This document shows, piece by piece, positions 438 through 61,165 of a stretch of DNA of 64,000 nucleotides. Source of the DNA: Bacteroidales bacterium. GTDB taxonomy: Bacteria > Bacteroidota > Bacteroidia > Bacteroidales > UBA932. The stretch spans positions 1-64,000 of the forward strand of contig JAVBOB010000001.1 of NCBI GenBank assembly GCA_031551125.1, in the 5' to 3' direction. The notes below the pieces were generated by a model that was given only the letters and a program-made list of their open reading frames with translations, was not told the DNA's origin and ran no database searches. The position numbers and the translations under genes were made by a program. How positions within the stretch are numbered: position 1 is the first letter of the stretch; each line of letters begins with the position of its first letter.

Positions 438-1445
438 TTACATAAGGCTGATTTCAGCAACCGTAAGCCCGTTGTCGTTTTCCTCGTAGCGTACCATTAG
501 CGTTTTCTTTGATTTTAGCGGCGTAACAGGGTCTATGCTTCTAATGGTTGCCCTGTTCCATGTGGGGTCAGCCCGTTCTTTGCGGTAGTGCATGCTTACG
601 TCAAAGTTCAGCTCTTCTCCCGTTTCCCAGTACGGACACTTCTTCCAGCCGTTATCGCTTACGCTTTGGGGCGCTTTGCCTCCTACCTCTGGCGCTGGTA
701 TCAGGTCTTCACCGTTAATGGATATGGCGGGACGAATAAAGGCAAGGCAAACATCGGCACGGAACGATGAGTAGCGGTAAGTTCCGCTGCTATCCTCAGA
801 ATCGGTTTCGTGCTTAGTAACCTTGAACGATACAACTTTTTGCAAGCCATCTTCTGCCAAATATGCCGCCAGCGCTTCTTCTGCATGCTTCTCTGTAGGC
901 ACAGGTATGCTTATGGTAGCCTTATCGGAATGGCTTTTAATGATAAGGTTTCCGTTTACGGTGAACATGAGGTATTCTGATGGTTTTGGCTCTCCCGTCA
1001 CGGTAGCGTTAAGCGTTGCTTCCATTCCCGCCTCGCGGTACCAGTAGCCTCCCAGGGCTATCCAACCTTCGTTTGCTTTGTAGATGTAGGCCGCTCCTGT
1101 GAACGGAATTTCTGTTCCGCACTTCCAAATCTGGTACACGCGGCTACGGTCTATCTTTCCCTTAAGTGATTCTTCAGTCGGTATATCGGTAAAGCGCACC
1201 AAATCGACTATCGATTCTATTTTTGCGCTGTTCTCTGTCCACACCGCAGCATCTTTTGTAAGTCGTGCAACTCCTTCATAGCGTACCTCTACCACATCGC
1301 TGTCGGAGTGAGAAATGTTACCGGTTACGTTTATTGCTGCCAGCTCTGCAAAGCTTTTACTCTCACGTTCCACTTGGCGGAAAATAACTTGGCGGGTTGC
1401 ATCCAGTATATCTTTTGGACTTAGATTCTTAGTCATAGCATTCAC
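438..1445 (-). CDS. hypothetical protein (335 aa)
   Basis: Long ORF with no recognisable motifs. Its start overlaps the stop of the downstream gene by 4 nt (ATGA), which suggests operonic coupling with the island genes. Confidence 0.5.
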   Translation of the reverse strand: MNAMTKNLSPKDILDATRQVIFRQVERESKSFAELAAINVTGNISHSDSDVVEVRYEGVARLTKDAAVWTENSAKIESIVDLVRFTDIPTEESLKGKIDRSRVYQIWKCGTEIPFTGAAYIYKANEGWIALGGYWYREAGMEATLNATVTGEPKPSEYLMFTVNGNLIIKSHSDKATISIPVPTEKHAEEALAAYLAEDGLQKVVSFKVTKHETDSEDSSGTYRYSSFRADVCLAFIRPAISINGEDLIPAPEVGGKAPQSVSDNGWKKCPYWETGEELNFDVSMHYRKERADPTWNRATIRSIDPVTPLKSKKTLMVRYEENDNGLTVAEISLM

Positions 1446-2110
1446 TTTTTAAGTACGCTCTTACCTTCGCGCAGCAAATCTTTAAATTCGGACTCTTCAA
1501 TAATTCCTTCTTCTTCGGGGAAGCAAATGGGGTCGATAGCTTTAGCTACTGCATCGTAATCGGCCTCGTCAAGGTCAACATCAAATTCAAAATCTCTACT
1601 ATCGGCAATAATAAAGGCTTCGGGACGGCCGGCAAACTCCATACCGAAATAGGTGGTGCAAAGCATTACCTGTGCTTTTGTGTTGCCCAATACGGTCAGC
1701 ATTCCGCCGTTATCTCCGCGTGAGCCTACAATGCCATTGCCGGCAATCAGGTCGCCCAGTACAACCACTTCGGGGCAACCGGACATAAAGAGGTTGCGCA
1801 CATGCAAATTGCCTGTTACAAACAGAAACGAGCCGCTGCCCCATTCTGCCCAGTCAATATCCTCATCAACCGTCAAATTACCATCAACAATCAGGTTGAA
1901 GGGACACCAGTCCTGTTTGCTTACCACTAAGTTTTTAATGTGGCAATTGCCCTCAATGAGGCGGGTTGCCTGCTTGCCTGCAAAACGGGTGAACGGAAAG
2001 TTTACCTTGTCGGAAATGTTGTATTGGCTGTCCGCTTCGGCAGTATCAACGGCTTTTGCGTACTGCTCAATGTTTGCTTCGTCTAGTATTAAATTCTTGT
2101 CTGTTGTCAT
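1442..2110 (-). CDS. paralog 1 of a beta-solenoid-like repeat-domain family (222 aa), uncharacterised
   Basis: Shares the motif block NLIVDGNLTVD..DW...GSFLFVTGNLHVRNL..GC.EV.V.G.....NGI.G..GDNGG.LTV.GNTKA with ORFs 2137..2841, 8017..9348, 9484..10200 and 10965..14135. Acidic C-terminal tail. Confidence 0.6.
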   Translation of the reverse strand: MTTDKNLILDEANIEQYAKAVDTAEADSQYNISDKVNFPFTRFAGKQATRLIEGNCHIKNLVVSKQDWCPFNLIVDGNLTVDEDIDWAEWGSGSFLFVTGNLHVRNLFMSGCPEVVVLGDLIAGNGIVGSRGDNGGMLTVLGNTKAQVMLCTTYFGMEFAGRPEAFIIADSRDFEFDVDLDEADYDAVAKAIDPICFPEEEGIIEESEFKDLLREGKSVLKK

Positions 2111-2136
2111 AGTATTTAATTTTTAGTGTTGTTATT

Positions 2137-2841
2137 TTATTTTCTCAAAAATGGAGTACCCGCTTTAATAGCCTTGCATACTGCGCTCTCGTTTACACCA
2201 CCTTCTTTTGAAAGATATTTGAGAAGTAAAATTTCTTTGCAGTTGGGTGGTAAATCGACCTCTTCATCATCGTCATACTCGTCGTAGTTGGCTTGATAGT
2301 CGGCTTCATACTCATAGTCTCCTTCGCTGTCACAAATTACAATTGCTTCAGGTTGTGATGCAAAGTCGGTTTCGAAGTAAGTGGTTAAAATTACAGAATG
2401 TGCTTTAGTGGTACCACCTACAGTAAGGCGACCGCCATCTTCTCCTGAGTGACATAGTATGCAATTTTCTACCTCAACATTGCTATCTATGGTTACTTCG
2501 CAACAACCTTCCAGTATTATGTTTTGGGCTTTCAGATTGCCTTTTACCAGCACATAGCTATCGTTTAGTCCATTGCTCCAATCCATAATGCCATCAATAA
2601 TCAAATCGCCCAGAACAATAAGTTTGTATTGTGCAATATCTGACTTTTCACCGCCTTTCAACGCGCTTATATGCAAGTTGCCCTTGTATAAGCCTACGGG
2701 CGATATTTCCTCATCGTCGTCATAGCCAGCATGTAATTCCGGCGCACTGTATAGCTTCTCAGCATCATCTTGGCTTATTATTGTTAGTATTTCTCTGAAA
2801 TTACTTTCGTTCAGTTCCTGTAGGGTGGCTTTCTTTTTCAT
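2137..2841 (-). CDS. paralog 2 of the beta-solenoid-like domain family (234 aa)
   Basis: KLIVLGDLIIDG..DW....SYVLVKGNLKAQNIILEGCCEVTIDSNVEVENCIL..GEDGGRLTVGGTTKA; acidic D/E/Y-rich C-terminus. Confidence 0.6.
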   Translation of the reverse strand: MKKKATLQELNESNFREILTIISQDDAEKLYSAPELHAGYDDDEEISPVGLYKGNLHISALKGGEKSDIAQYKLIVLGDLIIDGIMDWSNGLNDSYVLVKGNLKAQNIILEGCCEVTIDSNVEVENCILCHSGEDGGRLTVGGTTKAHSVILTTYFETDFASQPEAIVICDSEGDYEYEADYQANYDEYDDDEEVDLPPNCKEILLLKYLSKEGGVNESAVCKAIKAGTPFLRK

Positions 2842-2980
2842 GGTGTTATTTTATTTATTTTGATAAATCTTTTTGTACATTTATTCCCTCACTAAGGGCA
2901 TTGTAAAGCGCGTCATTGTCAATTTTCCATTCGTTATCTTCGATTTCGACAATCTCTTTCGGCCCTATTATAACATAGCT

Positions 2981-3748
2981 TTAATCAAAGTTACCACGGC
3001 TTATTTCGTCGTCAGCGGTTTTGGCAATTTCTTCCAGCCGGGCAAACTCTTCTGCACATTTCTTCATCTCCTCCGATGTATTTGGCGCCTCTAGTAAAAT
3101 ACGGCTGATTTCGTTGGCTGCATGGCGCATTTTTATAAAGCCTTCAGCAATTTGTGATGTAGTCCAAGATCGCTTGCGGAATGAACAGCGGAACTTCCGA
3201 AACCGGAGGTTGTGAATATGCTGTTTGCATTCGGGCGTGTAGTCTTTTCCTTTGGGAGAAAGATTATGAAGCTGCATGGCTATGCGGTTGTAGTCTTCCT
3301 CCAAGTCGGAAATACAATAGGTAAGGTCGCTGAGTGGCGGATATTTCGCTATTTGTTCTGCCAAAACTTTTTCGTCCATTTGGGCATAGGGCGCACCCAT
3401 GATATCGAAAATCCGTTTGCGCTCGGCATACTGTAGCGGTTGGTACGAGCGGTAACGGTAGTCTATCGAAGATAGAAACCGGTGGAAAAGGTAATCCTCA
3501 ATGGTGGTGTATAACGCCCAATAAATGGCCTCTTCCGGATTATCGGTCGAGCGTAGCTCCAATATCTCCGGGCCCCCTCTGCTGTCCGGGTCACTCCTCA
3601 TCAGGCGGTATTTCCCATCTTTGATGATTAGGGTATCAAAATACATAATGGGCTCGCCTATATGCAACGCAGGTGCTCCGGTGGCAAATTCCGGAACTTT
3701 TTGTAGCAGCGCGGCGGCTATATCAATCAACTCTCTTATCGTTAGCAT
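2981..3748 (-). CDS. hypothetical protein (255 aa)
   Basis: ORF in the same-strand island; no recognised domain. Confidence 0.45.
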   Translation of the reverse strand: MLTIRELIDIAAALLQKVPEFATGAPALHIGEPIMYFDTLIIKDGKYRLMRSDPDSRGGPEILELRSTDNPEEAIYWALYTTIEDYLFHRFLSSIDYRYRSYQPLQYAERKRIFDIMGAPYAQMDEKVLAEQIAKYPPLSDLTYCISDLEEDYNRIAMQLHNLSPKGKDYTPECKQHIHNLRFRKFRCSFRKRSWTTSQIAEGFIKMRHAANEISRILLEAPNTSEEMKKCAEEFARLEEIAKTADDEISRGNFD

Positions 3749-3767
3749 GGTACATGGGGTAGGTGAA

Positions 3768-4994
3768 TTAATTTGCTTGAAGAGATTGCATAAATTTGTT
3801 CTTCAATGTTTCGCGAACTTCGGCTACCCGTTCTTTCATTTCTTCCGGAAAATCGTCGGGATTTACGGGGGTAAATGTTGGCGATGCATTAGACTCTTCA
3901 ACACGCTTTAGCTCCACCAACGCTTCATTTATTAAGCCCATGTTGGCAAGCCTAACAGCAATGTAGTACAAGCCCGAAGCATTATCGTCGTCAATCACGC
4001 CATCCATGTAGGCTGCTTTTATTTGCGGGTAGTACTCTTTATGCTCTTTAATGGCAGAAATGAAAACGCCTGCATTATTGCATAGCTGGTCGCAAAAGCG
4101 CTTTCTACGCGCATTGGGAAACAAACGAATGAGGGTTTCAAAAACGGGAAAAGCATCCAGCTCTTTATTCAAGCAGCTGACAATAATATTGCTGGTGTAT
4201 AGTACAAGGTAGTCTGCACCTGTGGTTGATAGCTTATTGCCACTCCTATACAGCTCTTCCAGCTTAGCAATGAAGGCAGGAACGTTGGTAGCTTTTTCAG
4301 CTGCTGAAAACAGCTCGTAAATATCGTCGTCAGTAATTTCTTTGCCTGACGGTTGGGCTACAGGCGCTTTTGCTTCTTGCTTTTTGGGCAGCTGAGCAGC
4401 TACGTTTGGAATAACATTGTCCAAATCCAGATATTCTGCAACGCGCTTTAGGAATAACGAACCGATATTGCAGGCTACGTACTCTTCAATGTCTCCACTT
4501 TCGTGAGATGCTAAACAGAGCATGGGTTCACCCTGTGTGTTTTTTGCTTGTGGGTGATATACCCACCAGTCGGAGTAATCGGTAAGCGGACATTGAATAT
4601 CGCCGGGGTTGGTGAATAGGCTTAGAAAATCGCTATCGCCATCTTCAAACATTTCGGGTTCTAGGCTGCCAAGGTCACCCAGCTCCAGCGCCCAACCACC
4701 ATCATCGGGAAAGGTGATGAACTCGTGCTTTGCCATTATTTTTTTGTATGATGCAGGCCAGCCGGAGAAATCACCGCTTGTTGCTTCACTACAGGCAAGC
4801 TCTTTATCGTCGCCAAAGTGTATGGCTAGCAATTCAGCTTCATCTGACAGCTCGACCGATTTTGCTTGTTTCATAATGGCCTCTAAAACAGGTAAAAATC
4901 CATCCGAATCGGCGAGGTAGGAGAAGTGTTCAACCAGCTCCTTGCTTAAGTCTTTTGCCGCTGAGAGCTGCTTATAGAGTTCCGTATTTGTCAT
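3768..4994 (-). CDS. hypothetical protein (408 aa), possibly with a SUKH/SMI1-KNR4-like region
   Basis: Segment WPASYKKIMAKHEFITFPDDGGW...DWWVYHP...GEPMLCLASHESGD weakly resembles SMI1/KNR4 (SUKH) immunity domains. The assignment is tentative. Confidence 0.45.
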   Translation of the reverse strand: MTNTELYKQLSAAKDLSKELVEHFSYLADSDGFLPVLEAIMKQAKSVELSDEAELLAIHFGDDKELACSEATSGDFSGWPASYKKIMAKHEFITFPDDGGWALELGDLGSLEPEMFEDGDSDFLSLFTNPGDIQCPLTDYSDWWVYHPQAKNTQGEPMLCLASHESGDIEEYVACNIGSLFLKRVAEYLDLDNVIPNVAAQLPKKQEAKAPVAQPSGKEITDDDIYELFSAAEKATNVPAFIAKLEELYRSGNKLSTTGADYLVLYTSNIIVSCLNKELDAFPVFETLIRLFPNARRKRFCDQLCNNAGVFISAIKEHKEYYPQIKAAYMDGVIDDDNASGLYYIAVRLANMGLINEALVELKRVEESNASPTFTPVNPDDFPEEMKERVAEVRETLKNKFMQSLQAN

Positions 4995-5063
4995 AATGGG
5001 TTAAGTTCTTATGTATGTGGCAAATTCTATCGTTGAAAGTTTCACTTGCAATGATGTGGCAGC

Positions 5064-6629
5064 TTACTTTCTCTTACTTTTTACTTGTTCTATTTTTTCT
5101 ATAACATTGTTGGGTAGCAGCGGAGTTAGGCGAGGAAAGAGGTTATCGAACTGAAAATCGTAGTAATCCGTATCGCCCTCTTTTTCGTAGTATTCCACAA
5201 AGCGTTTGTAGGCGCGTTGCTTAAGCTCATCGCTTGGGTTTCGTTCAAGCAGCGATACGAATAGGTTGTGTAGCCCGTCGGCAGCCAACAGCTGCGTATC
5301 GCACTTTTCGAGTAGGTAAATCAGCGCATCGGTGGTAAGCTTGGGAAGGTAGCTATCAATCAGCTGGTCTTGCACGGTGTCTGATTCGGAGCGGTGTCCG
5401 GCATCGTAGTATTCGCCTGCGCGTAAGAAGGCATCAACCAGCTTCAGCTGTGCTTCGGTATGCTTGCGATTAATCAGCTCTCCTGCCGCATCAAGAGCTA
5501 GCTGGTAGTTTGATTCCATTGTAGGGAAGGAGAATTCGAACAGGTGAACCAGCGTATCGAAGGTGAACATTTTTTTGAACAGGTAGAACATATTGTCCAG
5601 CAACTCCACGTCAGCGGGTTCTCCTTCACTGTCCGATTCAATTTCAAAAAAAGTAGAAATAACATTCTTGATTTTTTTTGAAGCCTCGTACAAGTCGTTA
5701 ACCAGCGCTTCTGCCTGCTCAATGGTTTGGGGCTCGCTCAGCTTATTGGCCATTGCTTCTTGTACCTCCGCTTCTTCGAGCGTACTACCGGATATGATGG
5801 CTTTAAACTTTGCTGAACTACGGTAAGTGTTGAAATCGGAATCGCGAAAATCGTAGTCGTGTTTGCCATTTTTTAAAGCAACAATAATGTACTTGTACAT
5901 CAGCTCTTCATTATCACCCTTAGTGGCAAAGTAGCAGGACATGTTGAAAGAAAGAGGCGCCCACTTAATATCTTCAATAGCCATGCCGTAGCTAACGGCT
6001 TGTTGGGTTACTTCAAAACGCCCACACGCCATAGATGCGGCTATAGCCTGTGTTAGCACACGTTCTTGTGTGCGCTTGTCGAGTACAAAGCCGGGGTACA
6101 CGGTAATTATATCGCTACACTCGTTGTAGCGTTTGTTGTTAACCATTTCGAGGTAGTAGTCGGCAAATTTGAAGTCAGGCGCGGGCTCAAACGTGGCAGC
6201 CTTAAGCTCTTCAATAGCCTCTTTCAGCAAACGTTCCGCTTTTTCTTTATCCTCCAACCAGTATGAACCGCGCATACCTATGGTGAGCTTATCAGCCAGC
6301 GTTCTTGCCTCGGTCAGCGCTTCTTTCTCTACGTAGGGCTTAAACCACTTATCGGTAACATTGCCCTGTACAGCGGTTGTAGCAAGCCAGTCAGAAAAAT
6401 CTCTTCCGCCGCTGTCAAACTCCTTAATGCGTTCGGCAGAAAATGTTTTCCAATCTTCCGAACGGATAATGTAGGCTGTCCACTCTACTAAATCATCGCT
6501 ACATGATATGTTGAGATGAGCCTTGAGCATCTTTTTTGTTTGCGCTTTCAGCTCGCTAAAGTTATCGTGATACTTGCGAAGCAGGTTTTTCGCTTCGGTA
6601 AACAGAATAGAGTCAATAGTTGCGGTCAT
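5064..6629 (-). CDS. hypothetical protein (521 aa)
   Basis: Long ORF; no recognised domain. Confidence 0.45.
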   Translation of the reverse strand: MTATIDSILFTEAKNLLRKYHDNFSELKAQTKKMLKAHLNISCSDDLVEWTAYIIRSEDWKTFSAERIKEFDSGGRDFSDWLATTAVQGNVTDKWFKPYVEKEALTEARTLADKLTIGMRGSYWLEDKEKAERLLKEAIEELKAATFEPAPDFKFADYYLEMVNNKRYNECSDIITVYPGFVLDKRTQERVLTQAIAASMACGRFEVTQQAVSYGMAIEDIKWAPLSFNMSCYFATKGDNEELMYKYIIVALKNGKHDYDFRDSDFNTYRSSAKFKAIISGSTLEEAEVQEAMANKLSEPQTIEQAEALVNDLYEASKKIKNVISTFFEIESDSEGEPADVELLDNMFYLFKKMFTFDTLVHLFEFSFPTMESNYQLALDAAGELINRKHTEAQLKLVDAFLRAGEYYDAGHRSESDTVQDQLIDSYLPKLTTDALIYLLEKCDTQLLAADGLHNLFVSLLERNPSDELKQRAYKRFVEYYEKEGDTDYYDFQFDNLFPRLTPLLPNNVIEKIEQVKSKRK

Positions 6630-6686
6630 ATTTGGTTGTTTATGGGTTTTGCTAATGTGTGTTTGCTATATTTTGATCTGTTTTTG

Positions 6687-6842
6687 GGCCCAATTAGGAG
6701 CCACATCTTTGTAGCATGTTTGTTTTATTAAGCATTCGCTCCGTTAGGAGCGACATCTTACGCTCGTTTAAGATGCTGCTCCTAACGGAGCAGAGTTTAC
6801 TATATCATTTTCTTTCTACAAAGATGTTGCTCCTATGGAGCA
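6687..6842. repeat. S-module: nested palindromic repeat built from GCTCC-N-TTAGGAGC / CATCTTTGTAG units
   Basis: Outer arms GGCCCAATTAGGAGCCACATCTTTGTAG ... CTACAAAGATGTTGCTCCTATGGAGC. Inner palindrome CTCCGTTAGGAGCGACATCTT ... AAGATGCTGCTCCTAACGGAG. The same module recurs at 10688..10834, 16273..16446 and 60994..61146. Confidence 0.8.
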
Positions 6843-6849
6843 AATTTGC

Positions 6850-6953
6850 CGTCATTGCGAGCGAAGCGACCCGAAGGGCAGCGTAGCTAACCAATCTGCT
6901 TCAATTTAGGAGATTGCTTCGTGATTCAAAAAGCGAATCACTCACGATGATGG
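6850..6953. repeat. H-module: GTCATTGCGAG...CTCGCAATGAC inverted-repeat hairpin element
   Basis: CGTCATTGCGAGCGAAGCGA...GATTGCTTCGTGATTCAAAAAGCGAATCACTCACGATGATGG; this copy has a degenerate right arm. Homologous copies at 9379..9478 (inverted), 10842..10957, 16173..16257, 56765..56854 and 59326..59410. Confidence 0.8.
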
Positions 6954-7009
6954 TTGTTTTGTAAATATTCACTAGTTAATCAGTAGGTGTACGTTTATAG
7001 CCAAGCAGC

Positions 7010-7999
7010 CTACAGCTCTGGTAGCGGAATGCTGTGCCATTCGTTATTTTCATAGCGGAAAAGTCCGGCTTTGCCTCCCATAAAGTAGAACTTGCCGTTT
7101 ACGTTATGAATACGGCGGTTTTGTGCTATACCTATAGGAGAGCCGATGTCAACAGCTGTATCTCCTTCCAGCAGTACGGCTTTGGCTCCGCTTACTACCG
7201 GTGCGGAAATTTCCAGATATATTTTATCGCCAATGGGTTGTACGTGCCAAATTTCTTCTGTGCGAAGATTTTTGATTTCAATGTTGGTAGTGTTTCCTTG
7301 TGCATCAATTTTTGTTAGCGATTCATCATCGAACAGGTACACGCTATTTTCATGTTCCATATATGCTATATGGTCGTAGCCCGCATCATGAAACTCTTCG
7401 TGCCCAAAGAATTTTTTCCAGCTGTTGCCATCTCCCTCAAAAATACCTTCGTCAGCCAGCAGCAGAATCTTTCCGTCACGAAATGCGATGTCGTTGGTAG
7501 AGCGTATATTGATGTTATTTTTGTATAGAAAATGTTCAGGGTCATGGCTATGCTCTTCAACAGCTTTAAGCAGGTTAGGGCGAACATCTTGCCAGCAACC
7601 GTTATCATACATGTATAGCTGGTGACCAAGTCCGGACAGGTAAGCCTTGTTTTGGTAGGTGAAAGCGGCAGATAGGTAGCCGAGTTTTCCGGGGCCTGTT
7701 CCGGCCGTTTCAATGGCTATTTTCTTTGGCTTTGCTCCGGGCGTTATGATTTGAGTATTTCCCCGTTGAGCGGCAAGTGCAACCGTAGGCTTCCCTTGTG
7801 CATCAAGGAATGCAGTAGATAGCCACATGCCGGTAGCGGCCGGATATACGTCTACAATTTTATCGTTGTTGAAATGAAGCAGGTGATACTTTCCGGCGCA
7901 GGTTGCCAGTACAAAAATATCATCGTTTACATAGCATAACGATTGTAGTATGGTTGCTTTCTTTTTTTCTTTGGGTGCTTCGTCTGATATTTTTTTCAT
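7010..7999 (-). CDS. hypothetical protein (329 aa)
   Basis: ORF in the island; the recurring G/aromatic pattern is beta-rich but I recognise no family. Confidence 0.45.
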   Translation of the reverse strand: MKKISDEAPKEKKKATILQSLCYVNDDIFVLATCAGKYHLLHFNNDKIVDVYPAATGMWLSTAFLDAQGKPTVALAAQRGNTQIITPGAKPKKIAIETAGTGPGKLGYLSAAFTYQNKAYLSGLGHQLYMYDNGCWQDVRPNLLKAVEEHSHDPEHFLYKNNINIRSTNDIAFRDGKILLLADEGIFEGDGNSWKKFFGHEEFHDAGYDHIAYMEHENSVYLFDDESLTKIDAQGNTTNIEIKNLRTEEIWHVQPIGDKIYLEISAPVVSGAKAVLLEGDTAVDIGSPIGIAQNRRIHNVNGKFYFMGGKAGLFRYENNEWHSIPLPEL

Positions 8000-8016
8000 G
8001 AGAGGTTTGTTTTTAT

Positions 8017-9348
8017 TTATAGGTTTTGCAAGTAATCAACTACGCTACTACGCTTCTTTTCTTTAGCAAGATCAAGCGCGTTTTGCCCTTTATCATTTTT
8101 TATACAGGGATCTGCTCCGGCAGCAATCAGCATTTGCACAACTTCTAGGTGTCCTTTTTCTGCCGCCCACTGTATGGCGGTTCCGCCATCGTGGGTTTGC
8201 TCGTTCAACGGACACCCTTTAGCTATAAGCACCTCTACCACGCGGATAAGCCCTGCTTCTGAAGTCATTTGAACAGCCGATTGTTTGTACTTATCTTTTG
8301 CCATTATATCGGCTCCGGCTTCAATCAGCATTAACGATTCCTCTCCTCTGCCCGAGTAGGCGGCCATTATCAACGGAGTAAACTCGTTGTTGTCGGGCGT
8401 GTTGAGGTTAGCGCCTGCTTTAATCAGGGCTTTCAGCGCTTTCTTTTTTCCTAGCCACGCGGCCATAAACAAAGGGGTGCATAACAGCTTATCTCGAACT
8501 TCCATGTCGGCTCCCTTCTCTACCAAAACCGTTATCACATCGGCTTCGTCTCCTTCGGCGGCAAAGTGTAATACGCTTTTCTTTTTTTCGGTGCATACGT
8601 TAACATCGGCTCCGGCAAGGGCAAGTTCGCGCACCAGCTTAAAATTGCCGTTGTCTGCGGCCTTCAGAATATCGCCTTTTACTTGTCCGGTTCTAAAAAT
8701 ATTCCCATTAGCTTTCAACACTTCCGACAATTTATCATAGCTAAGGTTACCACTGTCCTTCAAAACATCGGATGACAGAAGAATGGAGAGTTCTTCAGGT
8801 TTATGGTTAACAGGGAAGTTTACATCGTAGTCATAAGCTACCACCAACGCTTTGGGATGCTGCTTGAAGTTCATGTGAAAGTACAGCTGGTTAATGATAA
8901 TTTTTGCGCTGACTTCACCATCAATTACCAGCTCGCCACCATCATCGCCGTTTGTACCGCAAATGCAATTCTCGATTTCTACATTACCACGCACGTATAT
9001 GTTGGGAGAGCCATGCATGATAAGGTTTTTGGCTTTCAGGTTTCCGGTAACAAAGAGGAACGAACCCAAATCTTCTTCGCGCCAATCAATAAGCCCGTCA
9101 ACCGTAAGATCGCCATCAACTACAAGGTTTGGAGTACAGAACTCGTCATTAAGCCCAATGCTGATACCCGATAGCTCTAGGCTACCCTTGTGAATGAAGG
9201 TTTTCTGTTCAAGGTCTTCATAGCAATCAATAAAGGGGTATCCAACCGATTTGGATATGTTGTATAGCTCTTCCGCTTTTTCAGGTTCTATAAGTTGGGC
9301 AAAGCTTCCACAGCTTTTTCCGGTTAGTATTTTTTCTGCCTTCTTCAT
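8017..9348 (-). CDS. paralog 3: beta-solenoid-like domain fused to C-terminal ankyrin repeats (443 aa)
   Basis: N-terminus carries NLVVDGDLTVDGLIDW...GSFLFVTGNLKAKNLIMHG..IYVRGNVEIENCICGTNGDDGGELVIDG. The C-terminal half has clear ANK repeats (LHFAAEGDEADVITVLVEKGADMEV..., TPLIMAAYSGRGEESLMLIEAGADIMAKD..., TAIQWAAEKGHLEVVQMLIAAGADP). Confidence 0.65.
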   Translation of the reverse strand: MKKAEKILTGKSCGSFAQLIEPEKAEELYNISKSVGYPFIDCYEDLEQKTFIHKGSLELSGISIGLNDEFCTPNLVVDGDLTVDGLIDWREEDLGSFLFVTGNLKAKNLIMHGSPNIYVRGNVEIENCICGTNGDDGGELVIDGEVSAKIIINQLYFHMNFKQHPKALVVAYDYDVNFPVNHKPEELSILLSSDVLKDSGNLSYDKLSEVLKANGNIFRTGQVKGDILKAADNGNFKLVRELALAGADVNVCTEKKKSVLHFAAEGDEADVITVLVEKGADMEVRDKLLCTPLFMAAWLGKKKALKALIKAGANLNTPDNNEFTPLIMAAYSGRGEESLMLIEAGADIMAKDKYKQSAVQMTSEAGLIRVVEVLIAKGCPLNEQTHDGGTAIQWAAEKGHLEVVQMLIAAGADPCIKNDKGQNALDLAKEKKRSSVVDYLQNL

Positions 9349-9378
9349 CTCTTAATATTTCTTTACTGTGAGTCTATA

Positions 9379-9478
9379 CGTCATTGCGAGCAATTCGCTT
9401 TCTGAATCGTGAAGCAACCTCTGGCTATCAAAGATTGGTTAGCTTCGCTGCCCTTCGGGTTGCTTCGGATGCAATGAT
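9379..9478. repeat. H-module copy, inverted orientation, partly degenerate
   Basis: CGTCATTGCGAGCAATTCGCTTTCTGAATCGTGAAGCAA...GATTGGTTAGCTTCGCTGCCCTTCGGGTTGCTTCGGATGCAATGATG aligns to the reverse complement of 6850..6953. Confidence 0.7.
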
Positions 9479-9483
9479 GTGGG

Positions 9484-10200
9484 CTAACTTCTGAAAATAG
9501 ATTTTCCTTCCCGTAGTGGTTCATACATGGCTTTACTGTCAACATAGTCGCAGTAGTCGTCCATTTCGTCCAGCTCCTCGGCCTCCTCTTCGCTCACAGG
9601 GTCAACCAGTATATCATGATTTATGAGATGGTAGAAAGCCCTATCGCTCATAAACTCAATATCGTTTTTCACCTTGTTGCTCTTGCCATTGTCAACACGA
9701 TATTCGTTGCCGTAAGCAAGCTTAAAGCTGATAGTCCCTTCTATTTTAAAGAAATGCTCTTCGGGATAAAAGAACCCGGCTGTAGCATTGCCTTTAATAA
9801 TGGCAAAACAATCGTTGTAGTGCCCAATAATTGCACCCTCCACGTCAACATTTCCCTTCACCTCAAGCGTGCCCCCTGTTATAAGATTTTTCGCTTTCAG
9901 ATTTCCTCCCACATAAATGTGGGTTGCCGGCTCATCATCGTAATGTTCCAGCAGGCCGTTAACCGTTAAGCTTCCTGTTACTATTAGGTTGCAAATTTCA
10001 TCACCTAATTCCAAATTGCCGTCGATAACCAAATCGCCAATGCAAACAACGGTATCGCATTCCATATCGTTGCTTTCAGCATAGTTCAGATGCCACTCCA
10101 TAAAATTTTCTTTAAGCTCCGAAGCGCTTAGTGTTTTATGGATTTCGTCCATGCTGATTTCGCCTTTTATCAGGCTGCGGGTATTTTTTAGTGTTGTCAT
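9484..10200 (-). CDS. paralog 4 of the beta-solenoid-like domain family (238 aa)
   Basis: IGDLVIDGNLELGD..NLIVTGSLTVNG...IYVGGNLKAKNLITGGTLEVKGNVDVEGAIIG; acidic C-terminus. Confidence 0.55.
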   Translation of the reverse strand: MTTLKNTRSLIKGEISMDEIHKTLSASELKENFMEWHLNYAESNDMECDTVVCIGDLVIDGNLELGDEICNLIVTGSLTVNGLLEHYDDEPATHIYVGGNLKAKNLITGGTLEVKGNVDVEGAIIGHYNDCFAIIKGNATAGFFYPEEHFFKIEGTISFKLAYGNEYRVDNGKSNKVKNDIEFMSDRAFYHLINHDILVDPVSEEEAEELDEMDDYCDYVDSKAMYEPLREGKSIFRS

Positions 10201-10247
10201 TTGTATGTTTTTTCGTGTAATTCTTGGTTCTTTTTAGGCAACGACGT

Positions 10248-10628
10248 TTAGTATTCGGGTACTTGAGCGGTAAACTCTACACCATCAACGGTGCATGATT
10301 TAGCGTAGAGCGACAGGCTACAGCTTGTTTGTTCTGACCCCGGATAGTAGCTGCCGTTTTCGTAAATTTGATTTGCCAGCTTTACTTCGCGAAATACCAC
10401 GCTACGTTGCTTACTTCCGCCGATTATAATGGTAACATCCGCCGATTGGTATTGCCCGGCGGCAAGACGCAGTATGGGTTGTGGTATTTGTTCGTACCAC
10501 GAAAAGTCTAAGGATATTTGACCATTCTCAGCATTTACGGGAAGCCTGTAGCTGTAAGAGTAAGTGTTGTATTTGTACACATCGGTTTTGCCTGTACTTG
10601 TTCGTAGGGTTAGTTCCAGCTCTATCAT
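10248..10628 (-). CDS. hypothetical small protein (126 aa)
   Basis: Compact ORF between two repeat-family genes; no motif recognised. Confidence 0.4.
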   Translation of the reverse strand: MIELELTLRTSTGKTDVYKYNTYSYSYRLPVNAENGQISLDFSWYEQIPQPILRLAAGQYQSADVTIIIGGSKQRSVVFREVKLANQIYENGSYYPGSEQTSCSLSLYAKSCTVDGVEFTAQVPEY

Positions 10629-10687
10629 AGTGTTATAAGTTATTATGGTTATTTTGTTATTCGTTGTTATTTGTTGAGGCTCCGTTA

Positions 10688-10834
10688 GTAGCCGAATCTT
10701 TGTAGTAGGTTTGCTCTGTCTGCTGTTCGTTCCGTTAGGAGCGACATCTTATCTTCTGTTTGAGATGCTGCTCCTAACGGAGCAGATTTGCTATACGCTT
10801 TTTCTTTCTACAAAGATGTTGCTCCGTAGGAGCA
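10688..10834. repeat. S-module copy
   Basis: GGCTCCGTTAGTAGCCGAATCTTTGTAG ... CCGTTAGGAGCGACATCTTATCTTCTGTTTGAGATGCTGCTCCTAACGGAGC ... CTACAAAGATGTTGCTCCGTAGGAGCA. Confidence 0.8.
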
Positions 10835-10841
10835 AATTTAC

Positions 10842-10957
10842 GGTCATTGCGAGCGAAGCGAAGCAATCCCTGCGCTATATATCGCGCTAGTTAATCCATG
10901 CATTTGACACACAGAGATTGCTTCGTGATTCAAAAAGCGAATCACTCGCAATGACGG
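10842..10957. repeat. H-module copy abutting the stop codon of CDS 10965..14135
   Basis: GGTCATTGCGAGCGAAGCGAAGCAATC...GATTGCTTCGTGATTCAAAAAGCGAATCACTCGCAATGACGG; a hairpin-forming, likely terminator-like element. Confidence 0.8.
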
Positions 10958-10964
10958 GCGGGCA

Positions 10965-13900
10965 TTATTTACCGCCTTTTGCCTGCCAGGCCAAGAAGTT
11001 TTTGTCTTTCTTTAGGTCTGCAAAATCGCCAAAGTCGGAATATTTTGACAGTACGAAGTCAACAATACGGTAAGCCTCATCGGTGCGACCCAGCTTAAGC
11101 AGAATGCGCACTTTCGTATCGTAAATGTAGTAGTGGCTGCTACCTTCAATACAATCTATACCGCGTTCAACGGCTTTTAGCGCTTCTTCCAGCTGTCCTG
11201 TTTCCATTAAGAACCATCCAAGCGAGTTTCCGGCTTCGCGGTTTACCTCTTTATGGAACTGTCCCTCATCGGTGAAGACCCAGATTAAGCCAACAGGCGG
11301 AACCAGCTCTAAGGCCTTGCGGTTGTATGCAATCAGCTGTTGCAGGGCAGCCTCGCGCTCTTTGCCGTCTATGTTGGCTATTAATCGGCCTAAGCAGTAC
11401 ACAAGCCCGTAGTAAGTGTATTGTAGGTTGTAGGTGGTGCAGGGCTTGCCCGATTCGAACAGCGTAACGGCTTCTTCGAACGTTTTCATGGCTTCTTGCT
11501 TTTTGCCGTTAACCATTTGTTCTGCGCCTTTCTTTACAATTTTATCTACCGCACCTTCCTTTTCCCTTTCCCTATCAATACTCTTGCACCTTCTAAGGTC
11601 GAACTTAACGCCTGTGGGGAAGGTTTCGAAAATGCGCTTAAGCGTAGCCTCATTCAGCTGGGCGTACTCTAGCTTTACCTCTTTGAGGTTTTTCAATGCA
11701 AAGAACGATTCGGGCAGCGTTTCCAATTCCGTAAAGCTGATGGTAAGCTTCTGTAGCTTGGGCATATTGGTAAAAGCGTTTTCGGGCAACCGCTTTAGGC
11801 ATTTTCGCTCTACAATGTGCTTACCCGCTTTTGAGCTGTACTCCTTTTCTTCGCCCCAGCGGCTTAGGTCTAGCTCTTCCAGCGAGGGGATATTCCATAT
11901 TTGCGGCAGTTCCAACAGCTCCAGCTTAGCATAAGGTCTTGAACCGCCGTCGAGGGTTAGCTTGCGCAGGTGTGTTAGCTTGGAAAGGTCGCAAACCTTT
12001 TCAACCAAACCAAGGCAGTCAATCTCAAGTTCCTCCAGCATTTGCAGCTTAAGAAAGCGGTCGCCAATTTCGGCCAGCGGTAAGCTTTCCAGCTTAAGCG
12101 TCTTCAGGTTTTTTAAATCGAATATTACGGTGGCCTTACCCGTTATTTTACAGATAGACAGCTTATCCAAGCTGTCCAGCTTAGCCATTGATTGCGGCAG
12201 GTCGCAGCATGTTTCCTGAAGATAAAGTTCCTTTAGCCCGCTCAGGTCACCGATTTCGTTGGGTAGCGATTTCAGGCTGTACAGGTATTTAAGGTTGAGT
12301 GATCGCAGCTCCTTCAGCTTACCAATCTCTGCAGGAAGAGTTTCCAGGCGGCACAGGTACTTAAGATTGAGCGAGCGTAGCTTCTGCAGCTTACCAATCT
12401 CTGCAGGCAAGGTTTCCAGTATGTTATGTTCCAAATCCAAATCTTCCAGCTCGCTCAGCTCTCCAATGCGAGGTGAAAGCACCTCGAGGTCGTTATTGCT
12501 AAGGTCTAGCACCTTTAGCTTAGTAAAGCGGAACAGCTGCTCGGGAAGTTTCTTTATGTGCCTTCCGGACAGGTCTAATCTTGTAATCTCATCAGCGTTT
12601 TTTAGCAGCTCGTTCAGCTCTTTTACCAGCGCTTCACTGGCAGGCATGGCATTTTTGCGCAAGATAGGCGCACCTTCCTGCATAGCTTTTCGAATAGCCC
12701 GGTAATCCATGCTTTCGCCATCGTCATCTATGAATTTTGGAAGCAGCGCTTTTAGGGCCTCATCACTATCAAAGTCAATGGCACAGTTCGTCTGGTAATC
12801 GTTGATAATCATTGCTTCCGGCTGCTTTGCAAACCACATACTGAAGTATAGTATGTTCACAATAAGCTTAGCTCTTGTATTTCCGCCTATGTTCAGCTCT
12901 CCTCCGTCATCGCCAAACATTCCCATAATGCCATTTTCAACCTCCACGTTGCCTCTTATCGATACGTTGGCACAGCCGCCCAGCAAAAGGTTTTTTGCCT
13001 TAACGTTTCCGGTAACCAGCAAAAAGCTGCCATCTAGGTCGGTAGCCCACTCAAGGTCGCCATCTACTATTAAATCACCATCAACAATAAGGTTGAATTC
13101 GCCACCATTTACCGAGCCAACGTGCAGGTTTCCCTTGTGCAGGCAGGTTTCTTGCTCATCTGCAAAATCAAGAAAGGGGAAGTTAATATCCTCGGATATT
13201 TTGTAGGTTTCCTCTGCCTCTTCCGCATTAACAAGCGCAATAATTTCTTTGTAGTTTTTATCAGTCAGGCTTTGAATGTTTGTAGTTTGAGAGCTTTTGT
13301 TGCTGCTCTTTGCTTCGGCAGCTGCTTTGGGTTTGGCTACTGTAGGCTCAGCGGTAGCAAGCCCGTTTTCTACATGGTAGTCCTTAATCAGTTCGGCCAG
13401 CTCGGTAACAACCGAGTAGAACGTCATATCGCCCTCGTGCCAGCCATCGTTCATGCCCAAATCCTGATAGTCGAAGTGGCGCACCTTCATTTCGCCTGTG
13501 GTATCGGCACTGCTAATAACGTAGAGGTAGAAACGTTCGCCTTCGGGGCTGGCGCAAAACAGCAAGCCGTCATTCATAATTTCTCCTTCCTCATCGTAAT
13601 CTTCAAACTCCTCGCGGTATTCGCTGGTTTGCTCTACCATTTCTTCCGGAGAAAGCAGGCTCGTATTATTTCCGCTGCCCTGTCCTAACAGCTCACCATC
13701 GAAGTAGAACATTCCGTAGCGGGTAACGAAATCGGTGTATGAAGCAGGTAGCTTCACCTTTAGCTTTTTTTCTGCCTTGGCTATTTCTTTTGCTGTAACA
13801 AGGTCTGAGAATTCAACCGATTCTTCAATACCGTTTGCCTCTAACCATTCATTCAGCTCATCTAACACCTGCTTTGCCTGTTCGGCCTGAGCTGTTGATG

Positions 13901-14135
13901 CAGAGGCTGTGGTTACAGCACCTTCCGTGGCAGCCTCAACGTAGCCTTTTTTTGTCTTTTCAGCAATCAGCTTATCGGCTTCTTTTTTGCAGGCAGCTTC
14001 ACTATCAAATGATTTGCTGCCGGTTTGCCCCGCTGCACCTACCTTACCATAGGTAGTTGTGAGTTCAGAGCCATTTACCTCAATAGTCCAAAACTTGTTC
14101 GACTTATCGTCCGTGTAGATGAATGTGCACTTCAT
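10965..14135 (-). CDS. paralog 5: giant multidomain protein WGR - SUKH (SMI1/KNR4-like) - beta-solenoid-like domain - leucine-rich repeats - TPR-like C-terminus (1056 aa)
   Basis: WGR: DDKSNKFWTIEVNGSELTTTYGKVGAAGQTGSKSF...KTKKGYVEA. SUKH: EIAKAEKKLKVKLPASYTDFVTRYGMFYFDG...GLLFCASPEGERFYLYV. Shared block: NLIVDGDLIVDGDLEW...GSFLLVTGNVKAKNLLLGGCANVSIRGNVEVENGIMGMFGDDGGELNIGGNTRAK. LRR: LDLSGRHIKKLPEQLFRFTKLKVLDLSNNDLEVL...LDLEHNILETLPAEIGKLQKLRSLNL. The tail is TPR-like and helical. Confidence 0.7.
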   Translation of the reverse strand: MKCTFIYTDDKSNKFWTIEVNGSELTTTYGKVGAAGQTGSKSFDSEAACKKEADKLIAEKTKKGYVEAATEGAVTTASASTAQAEQAKQVLDELNEWLEANGIEESVEFSDLVTAKEIAKAEKKLKVKLPASYTDFVTRYGMFYFDGELLGQGSGNNTSLLSPEEMVEQTSEYREEFEDYDEEGEIMNDGLLFCASPEGERFYLYVISSADTTGEMKVRHFDYQDLGMNDGWHEGDMTFYSVVTELAELIKDYHVENGLATAEPTVAKPKAAAEAKSSNKSSQTTNIQSLTDKNYKEIIALVNAEEAEETYKISEDINFPFLDFADEQETCLHKGNLHVGSVNGGEFNLIVDGDLIVDGDLEWATDLDGSFLLVTGNVKAKNLLLGGCANVSIRGNVEVENGIMGMFGDDGGELNIGGNTRAKLIVNILYFSMWFAKQPEAMIINDYQTNCAIDFDSDEALKALLPKFIDDDGESMDYRAIRKAMQEGAPILRKNAMPASEALVKELNELLKNADEITRLDLSGRHIKKLPEQLFRFTKLKVLDLSNNDLEVLSPRIGELSELEDLDLEHNILETLPAEIGKLQKLRSLNLKYLCRLETLPAEIGKLKELRSLNLKYLYSLKSLPNEIGDLSGLKELYLQETCCDLPQSMAKLDSLDKLSICKITGKATVIFDLKNLKTLKLESLPLAEIGDRFLKLQMLEELEIDCLGLVEKVCDLSKLTHLRKLTLDGGSRPYAKLELLELPQIWNIPSLEELDLSRWGEEKEYSSKAGKHIVERKCLKRLPENAFTNMPKLQKLTISFTELETLPESFFALKNLKEVKLEYAQLNEATLKRIFETFPTGVKFDLRRCKSIDREREKEGAVDKIVKKGAEQMVNGKKQEAMKTFEEAVTLFESGKPCTTYNLQYTYYGLVYCLGRLIANIDGKEREAALQQLIAYNRKALELVPPVGLIWVFTDEGQFHKEVNREAGNSLGWFLMETGQLEEALKAVERGIDCIEGSSHYYIYDTKVRILLKLGRTDEAYRIVDFVLSKYSDFGDFADLKKDKNFLAWQAKGGK

Positions 14136-14336
14136 GGGTTGTATAGTTTTGTTATTTAGCCGCTTAGCGGTGAATTTTGGTTTGTTGTTGCTTTGTTGGG
14201 CAAATGTATGGTTTAGGGAATGTATAACAGGTAAAAACTACGATTACATTTTGTATAGGTTTGCGTTAAAATGATGTATACAATTTGTATACATTGCTAC
14301 TTTTCGTTAATTTTGCAAACCCTCAAGCCATTAGTA

Positions 14337-16172: not shown

Positions 16173-16257
16173 CGTCATTGCGAGGCGTTTTTTGCCGAAG
16201 CAATCTGCTTACTTTGAGCAGATTGCTTCGCTTTGCTCGCAATGACGATGTTGGGGG
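16173..16257. repeat. H-module copy directly after the LuxR-like gene stop
   Basis: CGTCATTGCGAGGCGTTTTTTGCCGAAGCAATCTGCTTACTTTGAGCAGATTGCTTCGCTTTGCTCGCAATGACG. Confidence 0.8.
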
Positions 16258-16272
16258 TAGGTTTGGTCTTAT

Positions 16273-16446
16273 GGCTCCGTTAGGAGCCCCATCTTTGTGG
16301 CTCACAATGCTTATCAGTATTTCATCGCTCTGTTAGGAGCGACATCTTAATTTGTTGCTGATTTTCATAAAGGAAGACGCCGCTCTGTTAGGAGCGGAAA
16401 CGATTTACTCATACTATTTCTACAACGATGTTGTTCCTACGGAACA
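16273..16446. repeat. S-module copy (more degenerate)
   Basis: GGCTCCGTTAGGAGCCCCATCTTTGTGG ... CTCTGTTAGGAGCGACATCTT ... CTCTGTTAGGAGCGGAAACG ... CTACAACGATGTTGTTCCTACGGAACA. Confidence 0.7.
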
Positions 16447-16460
16447 AGCCCGCTGCTCCA

Positions 16461-31277: not shown

Positions 31278-31463
31278 GAGGGATACGGTTTAGAGAGGTA
31301 TGAGATTATTGGGCAAGTGATAAATTTAAGCAATAAAGTTGTAAATAATTAATTTTTTAAATGAATATATTTGACATATTAGAAATAATTATGATATAGC
31401 TATATTTACAAATTACGTTGTAAAAGTCGCTACTTGCAAATAATTTTGATTATCAGCAAATTA

Positions 31464-32636: not shown

Positions 32637-32659
32637 TCACCCTAAATTTCTCAACTTAT

Positions 32660-34825: not shown

Positions 34826-34850
34826 TCGGGAACTTATCATATACATTACC

Positions 34851-35168
34851 ATGAAATCATTAGTAACCTTAGCCAAGCTAAGAATTTTAGAGAAGCTGAT
34901 TCATTCCGAGAGTACCGGTACTTCCGAACAGCTGGCGCAGCGGCTGCATATAAGCCGCAGTAAGCTGTTTGAACTGATTGATGAGCTGAAGCTGAAGGGT
35001 GTTCCCATTTCTTACTCTAAAAAGAAAAAGAGCTTTGTGTTTGACCGCCCGCTGGAGTTGTTACTGAAAGCCGAAGTAACCTTTTTGGACAACGAAGAGG
35101 TGATTGACATTAGCGGAGGACAAGCATTACAAAATATGCTTTGCAGCATAAATTTGTGTAGTGCTTAG
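34851..35168 (+). CDS. small putative HTH DNA-binding protein (105 aa)
   Basis: LRILEKLIHSESTGTSEQLAQRLHISRSKLFELIDELK resembles a winged-HTH; it sits between the exporter and the leader-peptide genes. Confidence 0.4.
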   Translation: MKSLVTLAKLRILEKLIHSESTGTSEQLAQRLHISRSKLFELIDELKLKGVPISYSKKKKSFVFDRPLELLLKAEVTFLDNEEVIDISGGQALQNMLCSINLCSA

Positions 35169-35315
35169 TAGCGTTCTTTTTTGTGGACTAACTCCGAATA
35201 GTTTTGTACCTGTCTTTGCAAAGAACAGGCTAATCCTGCGGCATGTAAAAGTGAGCAGGTATGTTTAATTCAAAAACTTACAATGATGAGGAGCTTAGAT
35301 TTAAATGCTCATGGA

Positions 35316-35474: not shown

Positions 35475-35503
35475 AATGATATTAATCCTTAAATAATTAT
35501 AGT

Positions 35504-35695: not shown

Positions 35696-35773
35696 TTGTA
35701 TAAATACTGCATTTGTGTAAATTGAGTAAATTTGCGCAAATGCAGTTTATCCCATTTATGTAAATAACTTTTT

Positions 35774-56764: not shown

Positions 56765-56854
56765 CGTCATTGCGAACAATTCGTATTTTGAATTGTGAAG
56801 CAATCTACCCATTATTAGCAGATTGCTTCGGCAAAGTGCGCCTCAGCAATGACG
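56765..56854. repeat. H-module copy (solo)
   Basis: CGTCATTGCGAACAATTCGTATTTTGAATTGTGAAGCAATCTACCCATTATTAGCAGATTGCTTCGGCAAAGTGCGCCTCAGCAATGACG. Confidence 0.75.
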
Positions 56855-59325: not shown

Positions 59326-59410
59326 CGTCATTGCGAGCGTAGCGAAGCAATCTACTCAATAAATGATGAGATTGCTTCGCGATTCAAAAAACGAATCGCT
59401 CGCAATGACG
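59326..59410. repeat. H-module copy (solo) between the Hint-protein gene start and the gltX stop
   Basis: GCACCGTCATTGCGAGCGTAGCGAAGCAATCTACTCAATAAATGATGAGATTGCTTCGCGATTCAAAAAACGAATCGCTCGCAATGACGGTGC (near-perfect extended inverted repeat). Confidence 0.85.
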
Positions 59411-60993: not shown

Positions 60994-61146
60994 GGCTCCA
61001 TTAGGAGCCAAATCTTTGTAGTACATTGTTCTTTAATTTTTCACTCGCTCCGCTAGGAGCGACATCTTTTAACTTTAAGATGCTGCTCCTAACGGAGCAG
61101 AAACTAATACACAATTCTTCTACAAAGATGTTGCTCCTACGGAGCA
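60994..61146. repeat. S-module copy (solo) upstream of gltX
   Basis: GGCTCCATTAGGAGCCAAATCTTTGTAG ... CTCCGCTAGGAGCGACATCTTTTAACTTTAAGATGCTGCTCCTAACGGAGC ... CTACAAAGATGTTGCTCCTACGGAGCA. Confidence 0.85.
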
Positions 61147-61165
61147 ATACTACTTTCAATGATAA

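Follow-up and report, generated by a model that had tools for sequence, protein, structure and literature searches.

Two families of intergenic hairpin repeats in a Bacteroidales genome: a candidate Y1 transposase partner for the S modules and a CGTC-type affiliation for the H modules

The intergenic regions of the Bacteroidales contig JAVBOB010000001.1 (assembly GCA_031551125.1; lineage UBA932) contain short, nested palindromes of two kinds, designated here the S and H modules, and these raise the question of what the palindromes are, whether they belong together, and what could have placed them there. The stretch under study, referred to throughout as the window, comprises positions 1 to 64,000 of this contig. 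An original prediction, made from the letters of the window, described S and H as parts of one composite repeat that structures a genomic island, and likened it to both repetitive extragenic palindromic (REP) sequences and miniature inverted-repeat transposable elements (MITEs). The arrangements that it listed, namely S+H at 6687-6952 and 10678-10956, H+S at 16173-16447 and an inverted lone H at 9379-9479, are all present. Its general view of S and H as non-coding, nested-palindromic repeats of a REP-like or MITE-like kind also stands. The best explanation, to which a probability of about three in four can be attached, is that S and H are two separate families of single-stranded DNA (ssDNA) hairpin repeats which have spread in intergenic regions and would be moved in trans, with S representing the gene-less ends of a Y1 transposase element and H representing dimers of REPs of the CGTC type.

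Copies and architecture of the modules

Searches with nhmmer profiles of both modules return exactly four S and six H modules from the window, and no further diverged copies (Table 1). All ten are intergenic, and most lie about 15 nt or less from a stop codon. The originally noted abutment of H copies on stop codons near 10957 and 16173 is borne out, with 8 nt separating the end of H2 from the stop of 10965-14135 (minus strand) and 7 nt separating the stop of 14271-16166 (plus strand) from the start of H4; S4 ends 14 nt short of the stop of 16461-17405 (minus strand). The copies had further been described as free of open reading frames (ORFs), and this part does not hold, as mechanical ORFs of 50-59 aa cross some of them. 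The motifs of both modules greatly exceed expectation across the window: GTCATTGCGAG, with one mismatch or none, is found 10 times against 0.79 expected, the S-unit pattern 14 times against 0.34, and GATTGCTTCG eight times against 0.12. When folded as ssDNA and compared with dinucleotide shuffles, the S modules have z-scores of -4.8 to -11 and the H modules of -2.1 to -10.7, and intact copies as single DNA strands are 5 to 11 standard deviations more stable than their shuffles.

The S module is approximately 155-175 bp long and consists of four units in the order A, B, short loop, B' and A', with 16 such units in the window. Each unit is a GCTCC-N3-4-GGAGC hairpin with a stem of 5-7 bp, followed by NNCATCTT. 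In the outer units (A and A') this tail extends to CATCTTTGTAG, of the form ..AT.TTTGTAG, and the inner unit B is a hairpin followed by ..CATCTTA. A pairs with A' and B with B' (86-95% complementary), and the spacers between units remain unpaired. The GTAG of the outer tail is situated 8-9 nt 3' of the hairpin and ends 10-13 nt 3' of the hairpin foot. The hairpin loops of S in the window are most often GTA; these loops, along with the CG[N]AGC interiors of the H units, are presumably GNA triloops closed by C-G. GNA triloops form unusually stable DNA mini-hairpins, and their presence in both S and H thus fits ssDNA as the active form of the substrate.

S is not confined to the window. A genome-collection scan with a 17-base S pattern gave mostly chance matches among those listed, together with about 17 true S loci. 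Among these matches, the full four-unit S occurs in Chryseobacterium, Saprospiraceae, Chitinophagales, Cytophagales and one Verrucomicrobiota metagenome-assembled genome (MAG). From one of these loci to the next the stem sequences vary, and the tails at the left end covary with those at the right (CATCTTTGTAG vs ATCTGTGTAG). One locus (L030, 2400-2760) contains an S nested in a palindrome with arms of about 25 nt (ttggcggataaatcc..gaatttttg / caaaaattc..ggatttatccgccaa), which suggests that this S was inserted in the loop of an older hairpin.

The S module and an IS200-type Y1 transposase

The original prediction had proposed a search for a cognate tyrosine transposase, either REP-associated or IS200-like, and in other genomes S-type units indeed flank IS200-type Y1 genes. 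A scan of all fetched loci for the HuH..Y motif yields Y1 transposase ORFs in L032 and L049 only, both of which were retrieved through the S pattern, and in both the S-type units abut the transposase gene. The enzyme of this type has about 152 aa and the motifs DHxH ... WQEGFGAFS ... YILNQPEHH. Its homologues, 3015 at E <= 1e-10, all belong to PF01797; it passes the NCBIfam IS200 equivalog model (cut-off 55 bits) with scores of 68-74 bits, and its closest solved structures are TnpA enzymes of the ISDra2 type. These motifs match "subclass 1.2" of the classification of Quentin et al. (2018; PMC6006769).

The flanks of this gene were compared in 80 metagenomic loci carrying a subclass-1.2-type gene, with 69-70 of them in the flank tests. 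By eye, the arrangement A - B - tnpA - B' - A' is found in nearly all 80. When the flank upstream of the gene is aligned with the one downstream, 46 of 70 loci show an inverted repeat with a score of 14 or more, compared with none of 70 after shuffling and four of 70 when flanks of different loci are paired. A-type units, defined as a perfect hairpin with its tail, lie within 200 nt of the gene on its upstream side in 43 of 69 loci and on its downstream side likewise in 43; their median foot-to-gene distance is 71 nt, and they are found in none of 76 control windows 1.2 kb away. The 160 A-type units have 50 different stems and a single tail consensus, AT.TTT(G/A)TA(G/A), that ends 10-13 nt from the hairpin foot. 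Anchoring the test on the tail gives the same polarity: a perfect hairpin lies 5' of the tail in 100 of 155 cases and 3' of it in 17, with 10 in shuffled sequence.

The S copies of the window themselves connect to these loci. A hidden Markov model (HMM) built from the four window S copies only matches the flanks of 26 of the 80 tnpA loci, and the matches split at the centre of the model. Model positions from about 3 to 88 end 1-20 nt before the ATG (L187, L192, L193, L167, L180), and positions from about 85 to 172 start 2-37 nt past the stop codon (L140, L150, L187, L190, L166, L196). As the two halves reach to within 1-37 nt of the gene, they leave no space for any other element ends, and because the model splits around tnpA, S corresponds to both ends of the element minus its gene. 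The module is nearly symmetric, so the orientation of S relative to tnpA is not fixed by these profile matches. S is probably a transposase-less (REPIN/PATE-like) derivative of a small IS200-like Y1 element.

Runs of three to five A-type units in tandem are also found at L032 (6850-7800), at L140 (2750-3000) and downstream of tnpA in L122 and L135. Their units, each a hairpin followed by ..TTGGTAG or ..GTTTGTAG, lie directly beside the transposase gene, in the manner of the REP clusters located by genes for REP-associated tyrosine transposases (RAYTs).

The relation of S to a classical MITE, that is, an internally deleted insertion sequence (IS) of a DDE transposase that moves by cut-and-paste between terminal inverted repeats (TIRs) and leaves target-site duplications (TSDs), can be judged from the same evidence. 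The likeness drawn by the original prediction holds insofar as A and A' form a terminal inverted repeat of about 27 nt and the element is short and non-coding. It does not extend to the DDE type. The direct repeats that it had suggested looking for flank none of S1, S2, S4 and S5 in the sequence, a result in keeping with a Y1 enzyme and contrary to what a DDE-type MITE would leave. Moreover, the supposed TIRs are hairpins whose stems vary freely between genomes yet stay palindromic, the sole gene found inside the full-length architecture in the 80 loci encodes a Y1/HUH transposase, and no DDE transposase was seen. A classical MITE is, accordingly, a very improbable description of S.

As described by Quentin et al. 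(2018), subclass 1.2 lacks REPs, the terminal structures typical of IS200 and the properties of an IS, and its gene is of low copy number with diverged intragenomic copies (PMC6006769, Table 1). The REP detector of that study expects a stem of at least 7 bp, with GT[AG]G on the 5' side of its foot at a distance of 0-2 nt. S units differ in the position of GT[AG]G and in their stems, and the detector would thus have missed them. No later report of REPs for subclass 1.2 appears in the literature searched. The S double-hairpin modules and the subclass 1.2 transposase could therefore constitute a previously unrecognised REPIN/RAYT-like partnership that is widespread in Bacteroidota and extends to at least one Verrucomicrobiota MAG, a proposal that is put forward tentatively and at slightly less than even odds. 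If true, IS200 would have given rise a second time, and independently, to a domesticated transposase with a resident population of repeats, here through a different end geometry, with two hairpins per end and a 3' tail of the form ..AT.TTTGTAG.

S can be placed among known systems by comparison with REPIN/RAYT pairs, or REPtrons (Nunvar 2010; Bertels & Rainey 2011; Ton-Hoang 2012), and with the "TIRtrons" (Di Nocera 2013). It shares with both the short palindromic units, their inverted pairing into one larger hairpin, an intergenic position and the lack of a TSD. In other genomes it shares with REPIN/RAYT systems a Y1/HUH gene flanked on both sides by inverted units, with arrays beside the gene, and the reported low copy number and intragenomic divergence of that gene; however, S has two different hairpin units per end, and its stems are only 5-7 bp. 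Like the palindrome-associated transposable elements (PATEs; PMC3119063), it is non-coding, retains the two ends of a tnpA(Y1) element together with their hairpins, and lacks a TSD. Recognition of single-strand hairpins, as in IS608 and ISDra2, is to be expected in view of the IS200 model that the enzyme passes and its nearest structures, although the parent gene family, unlike IS200, is the one described without IS properties or typical IS200 terminal structures (PMC6006769). S is thus a variant related to REPIN/RAYT systems and PATEs that nevertheless lacks defining features of each.

The H module and the CGTC repeats

The H module, at 75-115 bp, is a head-to-head dimer, and all six copies in the window are dimers. 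Its unit reads CGTC-ATTGC-GAG-[variable mini-hairpin]-GAA-GCAAT-C, i.e. CGTC-ATTGCGAG..GAAGCAAT-C. The stem begins with AT and contains five canonical base pairs (ATTGC/GCAAT), which are followed by GAG/GAA and an interior of 4-39 nt that is mostly CG[N]AGC. The dimer is predicted to fold as a three-way junction. The CGTC tag is present at 10 of 12 H unit ends in the window; deviating tags are GGTC at the left end of H2 and CATC in the decayed arms of H1 and H3. After GCAAT, the tails in the window read C-CCT, C-TGC and C-TAC.

Units of this type are abundant outside the window. The pattern GTCATTGCGAG-N4-30-GAAGCAATC is found in at least 120 viral contigs, with 215 units in 1.07 Mb of the contigs listed. 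Among 179 units from the listed viral contigs, the base before GTC is T in 95 and C in 76, and the commonest tail after GCAAT is C-CAG (34 of 179), followed by C-TCA and C-TCC. Adjacent units in the 1.07 Mb are arranged head-to-head ("+-") in 34 of 43 pairs. A plasmid search with S1+H1 at E <= 1e-3 found no match, and one with H5 alone at E <= 0.1 gave matches across phyla. A 28-mer of H5, CCGTCATTGCGAGCGTAGCGAAGCAATC, recurs with 93-100% identity in plasmids of the Alphaproteobacteria Novosphingobium, Methylobacterium and Methylosinus, of Legionella and of the cyanobacterium Aulosira, as well as in Helicobacter canis prophages. One Novosphingobium replicon carries the H 28-mer in at least 40 places, and the dimer architecture in Novosphingobium is that of the window. 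Such conservation of 28 nt across phyla is unusual for a non-coding repeat without a known enzyme.

Literature queries with the raw sequences of the two modules retrieved nothing beyond primers and chance strings. By its tags, H would belong to the superfamily of CGTC REPs, with its numbered family (CGTC families 1-4) left unassigned. These repeats, which include dRS3 of Neisseria and RPE-4 and RPE-6 of Rickettsia, are described by Di Nocera, De Gregorio & Rocco (2013; PMC3733652) as having a CGTC or TGTC tag, a stem starting with AT and a CCA tail, and as occurring mostly as head-to-head dimers in many phyla; Novosphingobium aromaticivorans is listed among their hosts. H shares with them the tag and the A-T then T-A start of the stem, and the commonest tail of its units in viral contigs resembles C-C-A. 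It also shares head-to-head dimers, a presence in many phyla, occasional in-frame insertion into genes and the lack of an associated transposase. H differs from the description given there in its 5-bp stem with GAG/GAA and a variable mini-hairpin, in place of a stem of 8-9 bp and a loop of 4-5 nt, and in the three-way junction of its dimer. H is thus a further member of a known and still unexplained superfamily.

An H within a gene is seen in L233 (3846-5330, minus strand), where it lies in frame inside a 494-aa ORF resembling a phage portal protein (peptide ..SARNDSPFVSLRGAEHRSNL..), reminiscent of the Rickettsia palindromic elements that insert into genes. Elsewhere, two head-to-head H pairs spaced 1.1-1.5 kb apart enclose ordinary phage genes and no Y1 enzyme.

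The positions of both modules and the conservation of H bear on a different reading, in which S and H are not mobile DNA and instead are selected transcript elements such as bidirectional terminators, stabilisers of mRNA 3' ends or structured non-coding RNAs. All copies border closely on coding regions without lying in them, mostly at about 15 nt or less from a stop codon, and H5 occupies the place of an ordinary hairpin+T terminator of the classical kind in the closest available relative (L117; GCA_031550925.1). Of 23 terminator-like matches in a loose consensus scan of 5-18 kb, nine come from S hairpins and their T-rich tails, and the outer stems of H contribute none apart from an internal loop artefact. 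REPs are reported to be located mainly 3' of genes and to exert effects on RNA (PMC3733652), and the H unit is conserved nearly base for base across phyla. Nevertheless, Rfam gives no match over S or H, either at gathering thresholds across the whole window or at E <= 5 over 6.6-17.5 kb. The H stem is not followed by a T-tract, and H modules are found in either orientation with respect to the neighbouring genes. S is also found upstream of genes, as in the 5' region of gltX, and its units are physically tied to a transposase gene; H can lie in frame within a phage ORF; and the orthologous spacers of relatives lack both modules. A primary function in RNA is therefore unlikely, whereas a secondary role in termination or stabilisation is plausible from position.

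Relation of S to H and weight of the evidence

The proposal that S and H form a single composite is not supported, as the two occur apart, with different distributions and partners. The corresponding model is a mosaic of the kind known as bacterial interspersed mosaic elements, which spreads as a block and in which the spread of H in this genome would rely on S or its transposase. In its favour, H lies within 6-25 nt of three of the four S copies. The S1-H1 and S2-H2 junctions, spacer included, are 92% identical over 62 nt according to a repeat finder, and these two S->H copies thus descend from one S+H ancestor. S5, though, is not accompanied by an H, nor are H3, H5 and H6 by an S; in the third juxtaposition (16173-16447) the order is reversed and the spacer different, so that this H->S copy is an independent juxtaposition. 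Only two independent juxtapositions are therefore available, and the co-location is marginal (author's estimate, p ~ 0.03). No S->H junction was found in the other loci, an apparent case in L061 not being an H. The exact H end is found in none of the 80 tnpA loci, three of which have a single match with one mismatch at 1.9-3.1 kb from the gene, and H is plentiful in taxa without a reported subclass 1.2 transposase.

S-like hairpins do occur in the interior of some H units elsewhere, and this also favours a composite. L065 (Thermoanaerobaculum) has TGCTCCGAAGGAGCA followed by CATCTTA, within an H unit of the form GATTGCTTCG-TAAGATGA-TGCTCCGAAGGAGCA-CTCGCAATGAC at 1860-1940 and 5040-5260. In Novosphingobium the hairpin is GGCCCGTAGGGCC, and the unit at L321 265-300 reads CGTCATTGTGAG-GCCCGTAGGGC-CGCAGCAATCC. 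These units hint that the S and H hairpins are related. Taken as a whole, the mosaic is quite unlikely, and S and H are best treated as two families sharing landing sites.

For the two families so separated, a mechanism can be modelled on the Y1/HUH chemistry of IS608, ISDra2 and TnpA-REP. The S hairpins would extrude on single-stranded DNA, and a Y1 enzyme supplied in trans would recognise them, then cut and rejoin near the conserved S tail. S would in this way be copied or moved without a TSD, as are REPINs with RAYTs and the IS200/IS605-derived MITEs (PATEs). H would likewise travel as a hairpin of single-stranded DNA, again with the enzyme provided in trans. In a bolder extension, the orphan CGTC repeats to which H is assigned may be moved by the same kind of enzyme, as the interior hairpins share the stem-GNA-stem form. 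Both families would land just outside coding regions, where secondary effects on transcript stability or termination are possible.

A number of observations weigh against mobilisation in trans by such enzymes. No transposase gene was found in the 64-kb window by Pfam searches of about 48 ORFs, and the four S copies, with a pairwise identity of only 66-82%, give no sign of recent activity. The enzyme associated with S scores only 35-39 bits against the cut-off of 80 of the NCBIfam model REP_Tyr_transpos, and is of the IS200 type (class 1, Y---Q--HH) where RAYTs are of class 2 (Y---NP). GTAG is located 8-9 nt 3' of the S hairpin, in contrast to 0-2 nt on the 5' side in REPs. Similarly, the ends of S are inverted repeats with two hairpins each, unlike the asymmetric left-end and right-end hairpins on one strand of IS200/IS605 elements. 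As this end geometry matches neither IS200/IS605 elements nor REPs, the cleavage sites are not assignable by analogy. With respect to H, a motif scan of the 1.07 Mb of H-bearing viral contigs found no Y1 ORF near the 215 units, and PMC3733652 describes CGTC REPs with insertions inside genes and no dedicated transposase. Selection for a host function could be an alternative reason for the near-identity of H in different phyla.

Genomic setting and implications

The distribution of the ten modules has consequences for the claim that they structure an island. This island (438-16166) is a run of minus-strand genes without Pfam match, and also includes an ankyrin-repeat protein (8017-9348) and a 1056-aa protein with WGR, SUKH/SMI1-KNR4, LRR and TPR domains (10965-14135). 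Situated right after a 5S rRNA gene (30-138), it looks like an island of the immunity-protein or polymorphic-toxin type. H6, H5 and S5, however, lie outside 6.6-16.5 kb, with H5 and S5 on both sides of gltX, and the modules are therefore not particular to the island.

Table 1. S and H modules of the window, with profile matches, predicted DNA folds and local position.
Module	Coordinates	Strand	nhmmer E-value	DNA fold	Structure and position
S1	6687..6843	+	4e-50	-39.2 kcal/mol, z = -8.4	A: degenerate hairpin then CACATCTTTGTAG; B: GCTCCGTTAGGAGC then GACATCTTA; 8-nt loop; B' and A': CTACAAAGATGT then TGCTCCTATGGAGCA
H1	6850..6952	+	8e-33	z = -2.1	Two head-to-head CGTC-ATTGC..GCAAT-C units; right arm decayed (CTCACGATGATG)
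H3	9379..9479	-	2e-28 (- strand)		Lone, inverted; between start of 8017-9348(-) and stop of 9484-10200(-)
S2	10678..10835	+	1e-48		82% identical to S1
H2	10842..10956	+		z = -4.0	6 nt after S2
H4	16173..16247	+		-29.4 kcal/mol, z = -8.2	Shortest H form, 75 nt
S4	16273..16447	+	5e-46		Longer central loop; most diverged copy, 66-69% to others
H6	56765..56854	-	7e-24 (- strand)	z = -6.7	Between peptidase M16 gene 54524-56611(+) and 57044-57685(+); absent from original prediction
H5	59326..59410	+		-34.6 kcal/mol, z = -10.7	Palindrome reaches 59322-59414; just downstream of gltX (59420-60955, - strand), 10 nt from stop codon; absent from original prediction
S5	60994..61147	+	1e-48	z = -11	Fills 210-nt spacer between tRNA_SAD gene 61166-61612(-) and gltX; absent from original prediction

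The GltX protein of the window best matches those of Williamwhitmania and Bacteroidales MAGs. In the closest available relative, L117, GltX is 82% identical and the gene order Mrp / DAGK / tRNA_SAD / gltX / Metal_resist is kept, with a gap of 9 nt between tRNA_SAD and gltX as opposed to the 210 nt that include S5 in the window; in L318 the gap upstream of gltX is 27 nt. Neither an HMM search nor a generic unit scan finds S or H in four related Bacteroidales loci (76 kb), compared with ten modules in the 64 kb of the window. As the modules are absent from the orthologous sites of relatives, they have been gained or lost on the scale of genera.

Several further features accompany the modules. 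Between gltX and the Metal_resist gene, a gene at 58067-59295 (minus strand) encodes NADase_transloc (F5/8 type C) and Hint/intein-like domains; L117 has no counterpart of it, which indicates an insertion beside H5. One of the relatives without S and H (L319, 1860-1970) has a different intergenic palindromic pair (TACCCCCAACCCCCTAAAGGGGGCTATAAC ... reverse complement) that may represent another repeat family. A Logan short-read contig (L001, 9480-9733) that carries the EamA gene of the window ends inside the H4/S4 repeat, consistent with such repeats breaking assemblies. The stretch at 31434-37340 looks like a bacteriocin export and immunity cluster: it begins with genes for a HlyD-type membrane-fusion protein and a C39-peptidase ABC exporter, after which come an HTH protein, small ORFs and a gene of the CAAX-protease-like (Rce1-like) kind.

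The general picture of these repeats as REP-like or MITE-like is unchanged by the present analysis, and S and H are best regarded as selfish or REP-like repeats and not as an island-specific device. In the annotation of Bacteroidota genomes, modules of this kind account for long spacers between genes, for small spurious ORFs and for breaks in assemblies. The record of the CGTC repeats is extended by H to a host in the Bacteroidales, to phage contigs and to insertions in frame; how these repeats spread has been an open question since 2013, and the near-identity of the H 28-mer across five phyla sharpens that question. The S result would give an orphan subclass of transposases its missing DNA partner, along with a compact substrate, two hairpins and an 11-nt tail for a 152-aa enzyme, for the reading of inverted double-hairpin ends by an HUH protein.

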